Below the pieces are notes generated by a model. It did no database searches, was not told where the DNA came from, and saw only the letters and a list, made by a program, of their open reading frames with translations. The translations under genes and the position numbers were made by a program. Positions 2,645-34,460 of a stretch of DNA of 36,206 nucleotides are shown here, piece after piece (positions within the stretch are counted from its first letter, which is position 1; the number at the start of each line of letters is the position of its first letter). Origin of the DNA: a candidate division WOR-3 bacterium (GTDB taxonomy: Bacteria; Hydrothermota; UBA3073; NMUJ01); assembly GCA_021158725.1 (NCBI GenBank), contig JAGGUB010000042.1:1-36206 (forward strand), given 5' to 3'.

Positions 2645-3881
2645 CTGGTACCCCCTTAAGCTTTAGCTGACGTACTTCGTTCTCGATCTTCTCCGCTATG
2701 GTGAATATAAATTTCAACTCCTCATCAGTAAACTCACCCATCTCACGTAGGTCATCTTCATTCCTTAATATAGCTCTTGCCGTGAATAGGTTATGTTTTA
2801 CCAACCGTTCCTTTATGTCATCCGTAAATTCGGCTATATTAAGTACACTCTCACGTTCGTATTCTTCTGGGCTAAATATGTCGATATCATAATCCACGAG
2901 CCTCGATGCAAGGTACGCATTCTGTCCATTCTTACCTATGGCTTTGGGTAGATCTTCAGGTTCTATCACCACAGTGATCTCTTTCCTTTCGTTATCCACC
3001 TTCTGTGTGATAATACGTGCACCCGACAATGCACGTGAGACGAGCACCACCAACTCATCACTCCACTGTAGCACATCTATTTTCTCGCCCTGCAACTCCT
3101 TCACTATTGGTTTGATTCGCCACCCCTTATTACCCACACATGCACCTACGGGGTCGACTTTTGGATCGTTAGAAGCTACTGCAACCTTAGCTCGTTTGCC
3201 AGGTATGCGGGCGATAGCTTTTATCTCTACCACACCATCTGCGATTTCGGGGATCTCAAACTCCATCAACCGTTTGAGGAAACTCGGATGTGTACGTGAC
3301 AGTATGATGTTGTCCTTCTCATCTACCCTCAACACCACCGCTCTTATGTTGCCACCTTGACGGAAATAGCCATGTTCACCTGGTATCTCCTCACTCACAG
3401 GTAATATTGCTTCAGCATCCCCTAAATTAACGAGTATATTGTAACGATCAATCTTCTGAACCGTACCGGCAACCAATGTACCTACTTTCTTACGGTACTC
3501 CTCTGCTATCCTGTGACGTTCTTCTCTTTCTATGCGTTCCAACAGCAGCTGTTTTGCAACAATGACAACACTTCTGGGGAAATCCTCGGGTGCCAACGAT
3601 ATTTGGATAGTGTCACCTACTTTCGCATCTGGATTATATTTACGTGCCTGCCTTAAGGTGATCTCACCGGGCTCTTTGGGCCTATGTACTACCTTTTGTG
3701 TTACAACTATCCGTATATCACCTGTAGTCTCTGATACCCTAATTTGTATATCACCTGTAAGGTCCATCTTCTTGGATATCGCTTCTTTTAAGGATTCCTC
3801 AAAGATTTCACGTACCAGCTCCCAAGGTAGCTGCCGTTCGTCCGCTATATCTCTGATAGCTTGTGTTAATGCTCTCGACAT
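2637..3881 (-). CDS. nusA: Transcription termination/antitermination factor NusA
   Basis: S1 and KH domains (ARIPGKRAKVAV, DPVGACVG, AIGKNGQNA) plus a short C-terminal helical extension; ATG 3881 after AGGAGG, TGATG overlap with rimP. Confidence 0.98.
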   Translation of the reverse strand: MSRALTQAIRDIADERQLPWELVREIFEESLKEAISKKMDLTGDIQIRVSETTGDIRIVVTQKVVHRPKEPGEITLRQARKYNPDAKVGDTIQISLAPEDFPRSVVIVAKQLLLERIEREERHRIAEEYRKKVGTLVAGTVQKIDRYNILVNLGDAEAILPVSEEIPGEHGYFRQGGNIRAVVLRVDEKDNIILSRTHPSFLKRLMEFEIPEIADGVVEIKAIARIPGKRAKVAVASNDPKVDPVGACVGNKGWRIKPIVKELQGEKIDVLQWSDELVVLVSRALSGARIITQKVDNERKEITVVIEPEDLPKAIGKNGQNAYLASRLVDYDIDIFSPEEYERESVLNIAEFTDDIKERLVKHNLFTARAILRNEDDLREMGEFTDEELKFIFTIAEKIENEVRQLKLKGVPGE

Positions 3882-4153
3882 CAATACCTCCTTTTGCGGC
3901 CACCTGGCGAGGATACTTCCAGCGTGTAGTTACCTATGCTGTTGTCCATATCGAGATATTTCTTAAGCTCACGACTTACATATACACATTGATCTAATGT
4001 TATGCGGTTGGGTGTATCCACAAACACTCGAATATAAGCGTTATTTACAGTACCATGGGCTTCAATATCTACGAGGAATATATCGGTATCCTCGATGACA
4101 CGTTCCACAAGTGAACGCACCTTAGCGATAACTTCTGACTTATTGAGTCGCAT
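3881..4153 (-). CDS. rimP: Ribosome maturation factor RimP, N-terminal domain only
   Basis: ITLDQC...VSREL...LD...YTLEVSSPG signature, directly upstream of nusA; ORF stops 6 codons after SSPG (90 aa). Confidence 0.9.
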   Translation of the reverse strand: MRLNKSEVIAKVRSLVERVIEDTDIFLVDIEAHGTVNNAYIRVFVDTPNRITLDQCVYVSRELKKYLDMDNSIGNYTLEVSSPGGRKRRY

Positions 4154-5891: not shown

Positions 5892-7103
5892 TTATGTTTC
5901 GCCCTCCTCTTTTGTGGATTCTTCGGGTTTCTCCTTCTCTTCGGACGGTTTCTCTTCTCTTGTTTCGGTGGCTTCAACTTTTTCGGGTGTTTCCTCTTTC
6001 TTCTCTTCTTCCTCTTTTTCACGTTCTTTCTCTTCCTCTTCAATCTCTTTCAGTAGATCCCTATCATCTTTGTACTTCACGAGTACCGCATAAATGAGTG
6101 ATTGTCCTACTGCCCATATTGCTATTCCGTACCCAAGTACCATGAATATTATAAAGTACAGAGCAAGCCCCACACAGAAGCTACTCACAAGTTGTGCCCA
6201 GTTTACAGGTACCCACTCTGGTCCGTGTATGAGTGTGGGTGCTATCCTTGCAGTAAGTGCTTCAACCCACGTTATCGGTGGTACAGGCGATAGATACCAT
6301 AACCCATTGTTCCATACATTTTTCCACCAGCTGTGACCCCATACACTTAACACCCAGTTTGCAAGTAATAACCCCTTCTTTGTGAGCCACCCAAATATCC
6401 ACACACCTGCGAACGTACAGAATGCGATGAAGATCTCCCATAACACAAGCCGCCACGTCTGCTCATTTAATGTGCTGAAATTTTCAAACAACACATCAAA
6501 CACATCCTTTTCTACACCTGCTGCGATGGAAGGTGACAACAGAAATGATACAAAGAACACAATAATAAGGTATATCACAAACAGCGCCGCCAATGCTATA
6601 AGTATGAAAAGCAACCCGATAACAATCGGCCCCACATAGGGTATTCTACCAAATAGCCCCAACAGACATCCAATAAGTATAAATACACCTATGAAAATTG
6701 CCAATGTGATAGGTGCAAGTATGTTTGCCTTCGCTTTCTTTAGGGCGTACCTCAGTGCATCCATCACCTCATAGAACTCATTACCTCGTAGCTCTTCATA
6801 CGTTACCTTTGAGATCGCTGATATCGATAACATCTGTATAAAAACGAAGAGCGCCACACCGATACCCCAGATAGTCCAACTATACCAAGGGAAATGTGTC
6901 ACCCCAGGCACAGGTACTGGTATGTATCGATACGTACGCCATACCTCTTTTACCGTCCATTCAGGTAATATCGAATATGCCACATAGGTGAGCACCGAAT
7001 AGACGATGACGCCAATAAGTAACCCAAGGAATGCTATCCAGATCTTTTTCGCTGAAAACGCAATCCTTGGTGCCCTCACCACCTGTGCAAAACTGTACAC
7101 CAT
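5892..7103 (-). CDS. Polytopic membrane protein of unknown function with an acidic C-terminal tail
   Basis: 403 aa, several hydrophobic helices, E/K-rich tail of about 50 aa; AGGGGG upstream of ATG; co-oriented between trpS and proS. Confidence 0.85.
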   Translation of the reverse strand: MVYSFAQVVRAPRIAFSAKKIWIAFLGLLIGVIVYSVLTYVAYSILPEWTVKEVWRTYRYIPVPVPGVTHFPWYSWTIWGIGVALFVFIQMLSISAISKVTYEELRGNEFYEVMDALRYALKKAKANILAPITLAIFIGVFILIGCLLGLFGRIPYVGPIVIGLLFILIALAALFVIYLIIVFFVSFLLSPSIAAGVEKDVFDVLFENFSTLNEQTWRLVLWEIFIAFCTFAGVWIFGWLTKKGLLLANWVLSVWGHSWWKNVWNNGLWYLSPVPPITWVEALTARIAPTLIHGPEWVPVNWAQLVSSFCVGLALYFIIFMVLGYGIAIWAVGQSLIYAVLVKYKDDRDLLKEIEEEEKEREKEEEEKKEETPEKVEATETREEKPSEEKEKPEESTKEEGET

Positions 7104-7115
7104 TATGCCCCCTTT

Positions 7116-8087
7116 TTATTTTAAATGCATCCTTTCTTTAACTTCCTCCAATGTGGCCTGCGCTACTTTACGTGCCTTCCTCGAGCCCTCTACCAGTATC
7201 TCTTTCGTCTTCTCTAAGGTAAAGTTCTGAAGTTTTTCCCTAACAGGTGTGAAGAACTCGTATATAGCATGTGCACAACGTTTTTTGCATTCAACACAAC
7301 CTAATTTTCCACTCCTACAATCAGTTTCTATTTGAGCAATCTCATCTTTATTAACCAAATTATGGTATGCGAAGACTACACAGCCTTCAGGATGACCGGG
7401 GTCACCCAGCCTTATCTTCTTGGGATCAGTGAATGCTTGGTATACTTTCTTTTCTATATCTTCGTAAGTATCTCGTATGAAGATGGCATTTTGAAGCGAT
7501 TTCGACATCTTACGTCCATCAATACCTGGCACCTTAGGATGTTGTGAAAGTATGGGTTCAGGTACTGGGAACGTCTCACCATACAGGTGGTTGAAACGTT
7601 TCGCAATCTCACGTGCCAGCTCGATATGTGGTAACTGGTCTTGTCCAACGGGTACGCATTTTGCTTTGTAAATCAATATGTCTGCAGCCTGTAGAACCGG
7701 ATATCCTAACAATCCATAGGTTACATTACCCTGTAGGTTCATATCGCGTATCATCTCCTTGACCGTAGGGTTACGTTCGAGCCACGGCACGGGGACCAAC
7801 ATCGACAACAGTACATGTAACTCAGCATGCTCCGGTACTAACGATTGTATGAAAATGGTCGCCTTATCAGGTGACAACCCAGCCGCTAACCAATCCCTTG
7901 CCATTTCCAATTTATAATCCGGTAGTTCATCCGTATGTTGGTAATACGTGGTAAGTGCATGGTAATCGGCAACCTCAAAGTAACAATCATATTCGGACTG
8001 TAACTTTATCCAATTCACCAAACTGCCAAAATAATTACCCAAATGTATCATACCTGTGGGTCGATAACCACTGAGAATTCGCTCCAT
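7116..8087 (-). CDS. trpS: Tryptophan--tRNA ligase
   Basis: RPTGMIHLGN (HIGH), YPVLQAADIL, VPVGQDQ, KMSKS. Confidence 0.99.
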   Translation of the reverse strand: MERILSGYRPTGMIHLGNYFGSLVNWIKLQSEYDCYFEVADYHALTTYYQHTDELPDYKLEMARDWLAAGLSPDKATIFIQSLVPEHAELHVLLSMLVPVPWLERNPTVKEMIRDMNLQGNVTYGLLGYPVLQAADILIYKAKCVPVGQDQLPHIELAREIAKRFNHLYGETFPVPEPILSQHPKVPGIDGRKMSKSLQNAIFIRDTYEDIEKKVYQAFTDPKKIRLGDPGHPEGCVVFAYHNLVNKDEIAQIETDCRSGKLGCVECKKRCAHAIYEFFTPVREKLQNFTLEKTKEILVEGSRKARKVAQATLEEVKERMHLK

Positions 8088-8093
8088 CCTTCA

Positions 8094-8121
8094 AAAATAA
8101 GGATACACATACCATTGTCAA
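8094..8121 (-). promoter_or_regulatory. Putative sigma70-type promoter of trpS (probably leaderless transcript)
   Basis: Minus strand TTGACA (8121-8116)-16 nt-TATTTT (8099-8094), then 6 nt to the ATG at 8087. Confidence 0.65.
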
Positions 8122-8151: not shown

Positions 8152-8179
8152 TTGACAAAAAGGATTGTATCGCTATTTT
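8152..8179 (+). promoter_or_regulatory. Putative sigma70-type promoter of the tuf/S10 superoperon
   Basis: TTGACA (8152-8157)-16 nt-TATTTT (8174-8179); same hexamers and spacing as the divergent trpS promoter. Confidence 0.6.
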
Positions 8180-8290
8180 AGATAGGAATTTACGTTTATT
8201 GATTGAAAATCTTTAAAAATTGTAAGTTAAGCATGATGAGAATGAAGCACAAGGATATATTTTTAATTGAGGAGATGGGTAGGAGGTGAA

Positions 8291-9487
8291 ATGGCGAAGG
8301 AGAAGTTTGTACGTACTAAGCCACATGTTAACATAGGTACCATAGGGCATGTTGACCATGGTAAGACTACGTTGAGTTCAGCTATCACTATGTGTTTAGC
8401 TTCCAAGGGTTACGCTCAGTACATAACGGTTGACGCTATAGATAAAGCACCTGAGGAAAAAGCGCGTGGCCTGACAATACAGTTGTGGCATGGTGAATTT
8501 GAAACCGACAAACGTCACTATGCATTGATAGACTGTCCAGGGCACGCAGACTACATTAAGAACATGATAACAGGTGCGGCACAGATGGATGGTGCAATAC
8601 TGGTTGTATCAGCCCCCGATAGTGTTATGCCACAGACACGTGAACACGTATTATTGGCACGTCAGGTGAACGTTCCTGCTATAGTGGTGTTCATCAACAA
8701 AGTGGATCAGGTACCAGATCCTGAGTTGCTCGACCTTGTTGAGATGGAGGTACGCGAACTGCTCAATAAGTATGAATTTCCAGGTGATGAGGTACCAGTC
8801 ATCAGGGGGAGTGCGTTGAAGTGCCTCGAATCCGGTGATCCAAACTCTGACGCTTGTAAAGCTATCTGGGAGTTACTCGATGCAGTAGATAATTACATAC
8901 CAGAGCCAGTACGTGAGGTGGATAAGCCATTCCTGATGCCTATTGAGGATATATTCTCAATAACTGGTCGTGGTACAGTGGTAACAGGTAGAGTGGAACG
9001 CGGCATTTTAAGACCGGGTGACGAAGTTGAGATTGTCGGCTTCCGACCCACTCAGAAGACGGTTGCAGTGTCGATTGAGATGTTCCGAAAAGTGCTCGAT
9101 GAAGCCCAACCCGGTGACAACATAGGTGTGTTACTACGTGGTATCAAGAAGGAGGAGGTTGAGCGTGGTCAGGTACTTGCAGCACCCGGTACTATAACAC
9201 CGCATAAGAGGTTCAAAGGCCAAATCTATGCGCTAACGAAAGAGGAAGGTGGTCGGCATACACCATTCTTCGTGGGTTATGCACCACAATTCTACTTCAG
9301 GACACTCGATGTCACAGGTAAAATTGTCGGCTTACCGGAGGGTGTAGATATGGTGATGCCAGGTGATAACGTTGAGATAGAAGCTGAACTCATATATCCA
9401 GTGGCTATGGAAGAGGGGTTAAGGTTCGCTATACGTGAAGGTGGTAAGACCGTAGGTGCGGGTGTTGTTACAAAAATAGTAGAGTGA
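8291..9487 (+). CDS. tuf: Elongation factor Tu (divergent)
   Basis: [54 protein letters not shown]; AGGAGGTG SD before ATG 8291. Confidence 0.98.
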
Positions 9488-9789
9488 TGGCAAGGATACG
9501 GATAAAACTCAAAAGCTACGACCATGTGTTGTTAGATAAGGCATGTCGTGAGCTTGTAGAATCGATGAAGAACACAGGAGCAGAGATATCGGGTCCCATA
9601 CCACTGCCTACAAAACGTACGGTGGTTACGGTGCTACGGTCACCGCATATTAACAAGCGATCGCGTGAACAGTTTGAACTCCGTATACACAAGAGACTGA
9701 TTGAAATAAAGCGATTCACTACCAGAACCAGGGAGGTACTGCAACGTCTTAATTTACCTGCTGGTGTAGAAGCTGAAATCAAGGTGTAA
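9487..9789 (+). CDS. rpsJ: 30S ribosomal protein S10
   Basis: [10 protein letters not shown]...GPIPLPT...[14 protein letters not shown]; TGATG overlap with tuf. Confidence 0.99.
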
Positions 9790-23019: not shown

Positions 23020-23427
23020 ATGCGTCACAAAGTGAAACGCATCAAATTGAGTCGGCACCTCGACCATAAGCGTGCTCTATTGCGTAACCTTGTAGCTGCA
23101 TTGTTCACACATAAAGCTATTGTCACCACAGAGGCGAAGGCACGTGCGGCACGCTCGCTTGCGGAACGGTTGATACATATCGCCAAAAGGGGAGACCTGG
23201 CTGCCCGTAGGGAAGTATTGGCGAGGTTACCACAACCAGATATCGTAAGGCATCTCTTTGACGTTATAGTGCCAAAAGTACGTGAGAGGGAAGGGGGTTA
23301 CACTCAAATATTACACTATGGGATAAGGAAGAGCGACGGTGCACGTCTTGTCCTCTGGAAGTTGACCGACTTCGAGAAAGAGGTGACAACCAAACCAGAG
23401 GAAAAATCCGCCAAACAAGGAGCATGA
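23020..23427 (+). CDS. rplQ: 50S ribosomal protein L17
   Basis: MRH...KLSR...HKRALLRNL...ITT.AKA...R.GGYT; last gene of the alpha cluster. Confidence 0.99.
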   Translation: MRHKVKRIKLSRHLDHKRALLRNLVAALFTHKAIVTTEAKARAARSLAERLIHIAKRGDLAARREVLARLPQPDIVRHLFDVIVPKVREREGGYTQILHYGIRKSDGARLVLWKLTDFEKEVTTKPEEKSAKQGA

Positions 23428-24386
23428 TGCGGAAGGTTGCATCTTTGTTATTTTTGTTTTGGATAGGTTCGTTATTTGCAGAGGTGAAGATTGGGTTCAT
23501 TAACTCACAAAGAATACTGGATGGATATCGTGGCAAAGAGACATTACTAAATGAATACAATAGACGTAAGCAAGAATGGGAGGCAAAGGCACAACAGATG
23601 CAAACCGAAATACGCGATATGTACAATGCCTTAGAAGAGCAACGTGCAATGCTATCCGAAGAGGCGTTTGATAGAAGGCTCTCAGAAATCCGTCAGAAGG
23701 AGGCTGAATATCAACAATTCTTACAGGAAGTGTTTGCCCCAGGTGGTAAGCTTGAGCAACTCTATAGCGAGGTGATGGATCCCTTCATACGTAGGGTGAA
23801 GGAGATAACCCAGAGAATAGCACAGGAGGAGGGTTATACGGTGATACTCGATCTTGCCAGCGGTATGGTACTTTACTATGATGAGAAAGACGACCTTACC
23901 CAGAAGGTGCTCAACGAGCTAAATGCTGAGTTTGTACAGGCTGAAATAGATACAACACCATCGTTGCTCGGTAAGCCACGTTTCTGGGTGTTTAAATTCA
24001 AAGAGTTGGACGATGAAAGCAAGCGGTTAGGGTTAGGTAGCAAGATGGCGAGCTTCATGAAGGCCGCTATCGCAGTCATCGGTAAATATGAGATAGCTGA
24101 AAAGGATCGTATCAACAGCGCCATAGGGGATGCAGGGCTTATAGGTAAGAGGGAAGAGGACTTCGATTTCCACGATGCATTGGAGGTGGGTAGGTTGGTA
24201 CCACTTGATCTGGTCATTATTGGTGAAGTTAGCACATCGGGTGGTGTAGTCACCGGCAAATGTAAAGTTATAAGTGTAAAAGAGGAGGCTGTGATAAGTG
24301 AGGTTGAAGAGACCATGACGGGTACGTCTGAGGAGGCTATAAAGACGCTTGTCTCGAAGATGGTGGAGAAAATACAGTTTCCATGA
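23424..24386 (+). CDS. OmpH/Skp periplasmic chaperone fused to a C-terminal alpha/beta domain (CsgG/FlgO/TolB_N-like)
   Basis: Signal peptide, then KIGFINSQRIL...coiled coil...IAQEEGYTVILD...DLTQKVLNELN (Skp), plus about 140 extra aa; directly upstream of lpxD as skp usually is. Confidence 0.85.
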   Translation: MMRKVASLLFLFWIGSLFAEVKIGFINSQRILDGYRGKETLLNEYNRRKQEWEAKAQQMQTEIRDMYNALEEQRAMLSEEAFDRRLSEIRQKEAEYQQFLQEVFAPGGKLEQLYSEVMDPFIRRVKEITQRIAQEEGYTVILDLASGMVLYYDEKDDLTQKVLNELNAEFVQAEIDTTPSLLGKPRFWVFKFKELDDESKRLGLGSKMASFMKAAIAVIGKYEIAEKDRINSAIGDAGLIGKREEDFDFHDALEVGRLVPLDLVIIGEVSTSGGVVTGKCKVISVKEEAVISEVEETMTGTSEEAIKTLVSKMVEKIQFP

Positions 24387-34124: not shown

Positions 34125-34460
34125 GGGGGTGAAAGGTCTCGACAGGGGTGATCAGAGTAAAGGGAGCATGCCGAGTCGCCCGACTCGTAAAATCGGGCAC
34201 TTTAAATAACTGCCGCCGAATATGCGGTTGCCTGATGATGAGCAGGCTTAACCTGTGGACCTACCCCCAAGGTCCACAGGGGATGGGTTAGGGGGTGGTC
34301 GTCCATACCTTTGATCCCGAGGTGGACGACGACACCAAAGGGATCTATCCCTTATGGTTCGGGGCCCAGCGGACCATAGGGGTAAAGCAAGCTGGGTCTA
34401 AGCATGTAGAGCCCTTTGCTCTGACACTTCTGGACGCGGGTTCGAGTCCCGCCACCTCCA
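34125..34460 (+). ncRNA. ssrA: tmRNA (transfer-messenger RNA), one-piece, 336 nt; 3' CCA not encoded
   Basis: 5' GGGGGTGAAAGGTCTCGAC and 3' GCGGGTTCGAGTCCCGC-CACCTCC-A form an Ala-type acceptor stem with G3.U70 and a T-arm. PK1 (CGAGT/ACTCG and GCCCGA/TCGGGC), resume context AAATAACT-GCC, tag ORF with stops in helix GCCTG/CAGGC. Confidence 0.97.

Follow-up and report, generated by a model that had tools for sequence, protein, structure and literature searches.

The tuf gene at positions 8291..9487 (+) of the 36,206-nucleotide stretch of DNA that we analysed (the window) is very probably the sole, everyday housekeeping elongation factor Tu (tufA) of a vent WOR-3 genus, with residues that vary by lineage. 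Most of its odd residues are inherited from the class and the phylum. The only lead of note is a Ser in place of Asp80 in the partner EF-Ts, paired with changes in EF-Tu. A literature search found no earlier account of WOR-3 EF-Tu.

The tuf gene and its genomic setting

The gene is preceded by a ribosome-binding site (8281-8287) and encodes a protein of 398 aa that passes the equivalog cut-off of NCBIfam TIGR00485 (682.8 bits against a cut-off of 522.4) and contains the Pfam matches for domains I-II-III (PF00009, PF03144 and PF03143). Its AlphaFold model (pLDDT 83.7, with low confidence at 59-62 and 89-97) matched solved EF-Tu structures, those in the GDP state most closely. The protein shares with EF-Tu of Thermus thermophilus and E. 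coli (TIGR00485, PRK00049) the three domains, the fold, the G1-G5 motifs, T61, H84, the amino-acid pocket and most of the contacts to tRNA (substitutions and conserved residues of EF-Tu are given in E. coli numbering). The SAL motif is intact, and the earlier note was correct in describing the P-loop, the catalytic His84 (D80-C81-P82-G83-H84) and NKxD as intact. H66, E215, D216, F218, T228, F261, N273, Q329, T338 and E378, which we take to make up the aminoacyl/CCA pocket and the T-stem contacts, are likewise retained, together with E259, R318 and H319. With these residues in place, the protein would bind GTP and aminoacyl-tRNA, hydrolyse GTP on the ribosome via His84 and be recycled by EF-Ts, and we infer normal ternary-complex delivery.

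The source genome, G000 (1.25 Mb, 88% complete), is a fragmented metagenome assembly with two congeners, G001 (99% complete) and G002. Proteins that cluster with its RpoA, IF2 and EF-Ts bear the name 'candidate division WOR-3 bacterium 4484_18'. The sequencing runs containing the tuf locus are hydrothermal-vent and marine-sediment metagenomes. Counting of tuf copies, which the earlier note had called for, gave one in G000, where the other matches to tblastn and PF03143 were IF2 and two EF-G proteins and no second tuf was found. G001 and the 22 class genomes, 12 of which are 90% complete or better, likewise yielded one tuf apiece. Two identical copies collapsed into one are unlikely, since unique sequence flanks the gene in the middle of its contig and a single independent contig covers 5800-12300. 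Besides fusA on contig C13, G000 encodes another EF-G-like protein at C60:3735-5747, which is of the EF-G2 type and scores below the fusA cut-off.

The gene heads the S10-spc-alpha operon, and the ATG of rpsJ (S10; 9487..9789, +) overlaps the tuf stop by 1 nt. The place before rpsJ and an identity of about 68-70% are shared with bacterial EF-Tu, but a single copy away from fusA is a difference. As the earlier note had observed, tuf is detached from rpsL-rpsG-fusA; these genes lie on C13, where a gmhA-like ORF begins a few bases past fusA. The usual place of fusA is taken by the divergent trpS (7116..8087, -), which marks the rearrangement point and has the same position in G001 and G002. Across the 22 class genomes, fusA was directly upstream of tuf in 7 and absent there in 15. 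In the closest outside relative, P0041 (81% identity; sister position supported by an SH-aLRT of 96), the order fusA-tuf-rpsJ persists, and this gene is therefore tufA, parted from fusA by rearrangement. At the tufB slots of G000, tRNA-Thr-Tyr-Gly runs into mutL and tRNA-Trp-secE-nusG has no tuf in front. Because the tRNA blocks and the fusA neighbourhood are without tuf, neither ancestral slot remains for a further copy. We believe that tufB was lost in the lineage and that a rearrangement moved rpsL-rpsG-fusA off, which would have left tuf heading the S10 operon.

The suggestion that tuf has its own promoter can be kept in part. A sigma70-like site (TTGACA-16-TATTTT; 8152..8179, +) lies upstream with 10 of 12 consensus matches, and both of its hexamers are kept in the three genus genomes, but it is a weak consensus match only; the promoter-site scan returned 4 sites against 1.6 ± 1.2 by chance. 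It stands back-to-back with a sigma70-like site for trpS (8094..8121, -), and may drive tuf together with the S10 operon. Two metatranscriptome runs contained the locus as long flat contigs across divergent genes, which may be DNA carry-over. The codon usage of tuf correlated about equally with that of r-proteins (r 0.76) and of other genes (0.77), and did not set tuf apart.

Elsewhere in the window, a 403-aa ORF between trpS and proS (5892-7103, -) had no Pfam (E 1e-3) or NCBIfam (E 1e-10) match, and a 320-aa ORF before lpxD (23424-24386, +) had no NCBIfam match at E 1e-10. A short RimP of 90 aa (3881-4153, -), matching the N-terminal domain only, precedes nusA-infB, and a tmRNA gene with the tag peptide AAEYAVA lies at 34125-34460 (+).

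Origin of the unusual residues

The divergent motifs quoted in the earlier note were all found in tuf, and its E. coli comparators agree with K-12 tufA. They lie at 8369-8389 (helix A, just before the interval that the note had assigned), 8420-8443, 8465-8506, 8513-8545 and 8609-8638, and in domain III at 9275-9292 and 9299-9319. The description of switch I as divergent holds to the extent that residues in the stretch comprising switch I and the following β-hairpin (8420..8545, +) differ (F46V, Q48A, I60L, N63Q, T64L, S65W, V67G, Y69F and H78L). The core of switch I (D50, P53, E54, E55, R58, G59, T61 and I62) is canonical, however, and H66, D80 and H84 are also retained in this stretch; most of the flagged changes sit in the hairpin past switch I (residues 63-78).

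We assigned residues to phylum, class or genus in a table of 143 other EF-Tu rows (19 from the class, 44 from other WOR-3 and 80 from outside WOR-3). Changes at the level of the phylum were I60L (18/19 class, 24/44 other WOR-3 and 12/80 outside rows), N63Q (17/19, 22/44 and 1/80, in the same order), T64L (19/19 class and 27/44 other WOR-3), G257S (19/19 and 43/44), and the pair G110S and P111V in the loop at 8609..8638 (+), present in 0/19 and 1/19 class rows and in 19/44 and 23/44 other WOR-3 rows, respectively. Class-level features were an aromatic residue at 65 and Gly at 67 (13/19 class rows each), a non-basic residue at 327 (S or A in 19/19 class rows; R or K in all 124 rows outside the class) and M or C at 335 (19/19 class rows), where this genus has L; the R327A and T335L of the present gene lie in domain III at 9275..9319 (+). 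T28S, Q48A, Y69F, H78L, D141P, K324V and E348D were confined to the genus or nearly so, and D141P, which is Pro142 of this protein (8714..8716, +), occurred in 0/143 other rows. F46V and W65 were common to the genus and a same-order genome, and V46 occurred as well in 9/80 outgroup rows, most of them from Patescibacteria. Compared with bacterial EF-Tu, then, I60L, N63Q, T64L, W65/G67, G110S/P111V, G257S, R327A and T335L are signatures of WOR-3 or the class, while Y69F with H78L and D141P are differences of genus level. The odd residues would have gathered stepwise, at the phylum, then the class, then the genus level, at a normal overall rate.

In 17 of the 44 non-class WOR-3 rows (including L159, L165, L167, L173-L176, L178 and L179) and in 5 of the 80 outgroup rows (L051, L062, L065, L076 and L088), switch I is remodelled: it has an insertion of 6 residues, lacks D50 and P53 and ends in K-I-L-T. 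This form is patchily distributed on the ribosomal-protein tree, and on the EF-Tu tree its rows fall together, a pattern that hints at spread by tuf transfer or at convergence. Past the SAL motif, class EF-Tus (L004-L021) have 3-4 cysteines, which may form a metal site and in family f4 follow the pattern CxxC-x4-CxxC; two of the cysteines, C178 and C189, remain in this genus (window 8822-8857, tuf residues 178-189).

Overall divergence was ordinary. Identity to E. coli EF-Tu was 67.8%, in a WOR-3 range of 63-71%. Of the 209 sites with 90% conservation or more outside WOR-3, 10 are changed in this protein, against an outgroup median of 4 and a WOR-3 range of 1-17; 24 of 65 other sampled WOR-3 orthologs depart at more of these sites, and this within-phylum comparison is the safer one, the non-WOR-3 outgroup having been retrieved with query peptides and being biased toward the query. 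With the topology fixed by nine ribosomal proteins of 80 taxa, the genus stem had an EF-Tu/r-protein length ratio of 0.37, which ranks 44th among 83 branches, compared to 0.42 for the whole tree; the EF-Tu depth from the WOR-3 root ranked 32 of 37. In a free EF-Tu tree, built without any tuf3 sequence, the genus grouped with its class. The branch length that the earlier note had wanted measured is thus unremarkable. The note had also said that its proposals would fall if the branch length were unremarkable and the residues standard across the phylum; the length is ordinary, and the residues are mostly class- or phylum-wide with a few private to the genus.

Two readings that would set this gene apart from an ordinary tufA can be weighed against these data. 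That the odd residues come from sequencing or assembly errors, as the earlier note allowed and as a fragmented metagenome assembly might invite one to suppose, is already refuted and has a vanishingly small probability: 20 contigs from five sources carried the exact protein, two other runs gave contigs over 8408-9444 and 8244-9253 with 0 differences, and the motifs were common to the two congeneric species (EF-Tu 99% and 97% identical), except for I45V and A49T in one. Within the genus, tuf dN/dS was 0.016-0.075, and the gene is under strong purifying selection. The earlier note also proposed a specialised, inessential paralog like EF-Tu3 (tuf3)/actEF-Tu of Streptomyces, with a canonical tuf elsewhere. 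EF-Tu3/actEF-Tu is an extra, inessential, stress-expressed and antibiotic-resistant paralog beside tuf1 (PMC4342817, PMC12309360). The present gene resembles it only in having some conserved-site differences from E. coli and in not being beside fusA. The distance from fusA with a promoter-like site of its own, the 88% completeness of G000 and the existence of degenerate tuf paralogs in WOR-3 (G129, locus L150) would favour this proposal. Against it, the gene is the only copy, and no second one was found in any of the 22 class genomes; it heads a ribosomal operon and overlaps rpsJ, and the tufB slots are empty; and it groups with class orthologs on a short branch, as expected of vertical inheritance, under purifying selection. 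Residues at what we take to be the kirromycin/pulvomycin/GE2270A site positions (L120, Q124, Y160, G316, Q329, A375, E378, R230, R233, R333 and T334) are E. coli-like by sequence, the kirromycin-site residues being unchanged; G257S, presumably at a GE2270A-resistance position, is phylum-wide in WOR-3. We consider a specialised paralog very improbable and already largely refuted.

A degenerate second tuf does occur in a WOR-3 genome of another family, at L150:3568-4824 (-) (G129:C72). Its open frame of 418 aa has D21G, H84N, C81Y/P82Q/G83E and an eroded switch I, with 54 conserved-site changes vs 10 here, and its long branch is nested with the tufA of its own genome. It is probably GTPase-dead, and makes a stronger candidate either for a specialised paralog or for a decaying duplicate.

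Hairpin repacking and the tRNA-facing loop

In the model, a single hairpin (strands 66-71 and 76-81) holds residues 65, 67, 69 and 78 on its two strands; these residues alternate with H66 and probably share one face. Among 354 EF-Tu rows, the 34 with an aromatic residue at 65 had Gly (32) or Ala (2) at 67, and all 11 rows with L78 had F69, including an independent Patescibacterium, L081. This covariation comprises only 2-4 independent events, a number too small to reach significance (sign test p 0.5). We believe that the hairpin changes most likely reflect compensated repacking on one strand face, given their co-occurrence and i/i+2 geometry: a large residue at 65 would be accommodated by Gly at 67, and the polar Tyr-His pair at 69/78 would be exchanged for Phe-Leu. 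The genus-private or near-private changes F46V, Y69F with H78L, and D141P look like compensated repacking.

L081 (Ca. Paceibacterota) has an independent EF-Tu with convergent F46V, Y69F and H78L, encoded by a tufA between fusA and rpsJ. It differs from the present genus in belonging to an unrelated lineage, in being without W65/G67 and in having a normal EF-Ts with Asp80. A tie between the hairpin changes and the loss of EF-Ts Asp80 was rejected, as the L081 genome keeps the Asp.

The EF-Tu loop at 327 borders the tRNA T-stem, and the class-wide loss of a basic residue there, along with the change at 335, could retune T-stem binding. The sharp division at 327, R/K in the 124 rows outside the class and S/A in every class row, speaks for such retuning, but no change has occurred at Q329, T338, E378, R318 or H319 or in the amino-acid pocket, and the T-stems of the 33 tRNAs of the genome are ordinary ones of 5 bp, with one mismatch in one of them. 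We regard retuned tRNA binding as quite unlikely. The mismatch is G50-A64 in tRNA-Lys(CTT) (G000:C44:16329-16401, -).

EF-Ts and the nucleotide exchange step

The sole EF-Ts of the genome is a short Thermus-type protein (G000:C3:7569-8171; L036:1351-1953), whose best solved-structure match was PDB 1aip (E 4e-59). Like the Thermus protein, it is about 200 aa long and keeps Phe81, Arg13 and Lys24, but it has Ser at both Thr79 and Asp80 of the TDFV motif; Ser79 is common in WOR-3 and Ser80 is not. The Asp80 to Ser change (EF-Ts residue 83) was found in all three genus genomes, in AGC and AGT codons and under purifying selection. Asp80 was kept in 49 of 49 other WOR-3 genomes checked and in 147 of 150 diverse 50%-cluster representatives, the other three having Glu, Thr and Ser. 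Non-Asp matches outside the genus turned out to be the C-subdomain repeat of long EF-Ts, and a normal N motif was present in the 18 that were checked. Most WOR-3 EF-Ts are of the short Thermus type, some genomes (G048, G065, G085, G093, G112 and G115) having a long two-subdomain form of about 290 aa; only one stop codon separates several of the short ones from neighbouring ORFs in the same frame.

The TDFV motif is highly conserved and displaces Mg2+ (PMC3747624). In the complex from M. tuberculosis, the equivalent EF-Ts Asp contacts EF-Tu H87/A88, K24 salt-bridges EF-Tu D144/D145 (E. coli 141/142) and R13 contacts EF-Tu P114 (E. coli 111), and the loop with G110S/P111V adjoins this EF-Ts contact (PMC9529903).

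These observations raise a reading that is compatible with, and additional to, the housekeeping explanation: an EF-Tu whose nucleotide exchange has been retuned, co-adjusted with EF-Ts, so that GDP release depends less on TDFV. We hold it to be rather unlikely. In its favour, Ser replaces the Asp that contacts the His84/Ala85 region; D141P and G110S/P111V are at the EF-Ts interface, where the M. tuberculosis equivalents make Tu-Ts contacts, and F46V/S65W are near the nucleotide; and D141P falls on the same branch as the loss of an Asp80 that is otherwise so widely kept. Neutral drift alone does not explain Asp80Ser, which counts against a plain housekeeping account. On the other hand, all of this falls on one branch, where changes may occur together without having co-evolved; the Patescibacterium L081, which shares F46V, Y69F and H78L, keeps a normal EF-Ts Asp; and EF-Ts Phe81, Arg13 and Lys24 are retained, as are EF-Tu H84, A85, H118, D142 and E152. 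The D80A change alone in E. coli EF-Ts reduces exchange only few-fold, and given this mild effect Asp80Ser may simply be tolerated.

From the paired replacements, a co-adjusted Tu-Ts exchange interface is a plausible proposal. Its more specific form, in which D141P, G110S/P111V, F46V and W65 let EF-Tu make up for the missing Asp80, either by releasing GDP intrinsically faster or with an altered interface, we judge unlikely. The alternative offered by the earlier note, a co-evolved lineage-specific factor, survives in a mild sense: the 10 departures at 209 conserved sites, the few genus-private changes and the loss of EF-Ts Asp80 stand, but most of the residues are class- or phylum-wide.

As it stands, the overall importance of the EF-Tu finding is small. 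In WOR-3, as an example of an under-sampled phylum, EF-Tu motifs called near-invariant on the evidence of E. coli do vary. The class gains marker residues (aromatic 65 with Gly67, non-basic 327 and M/L/C 335), and H78 and R327 gain natural, tolerated variants. If the co-adjustment of EF-Tu and EF-Ts is true, the pair would be a natural experiment on EF-Ts-catalysed exchange without Asp80, and would gauge the weight of the Asp80 wedge.
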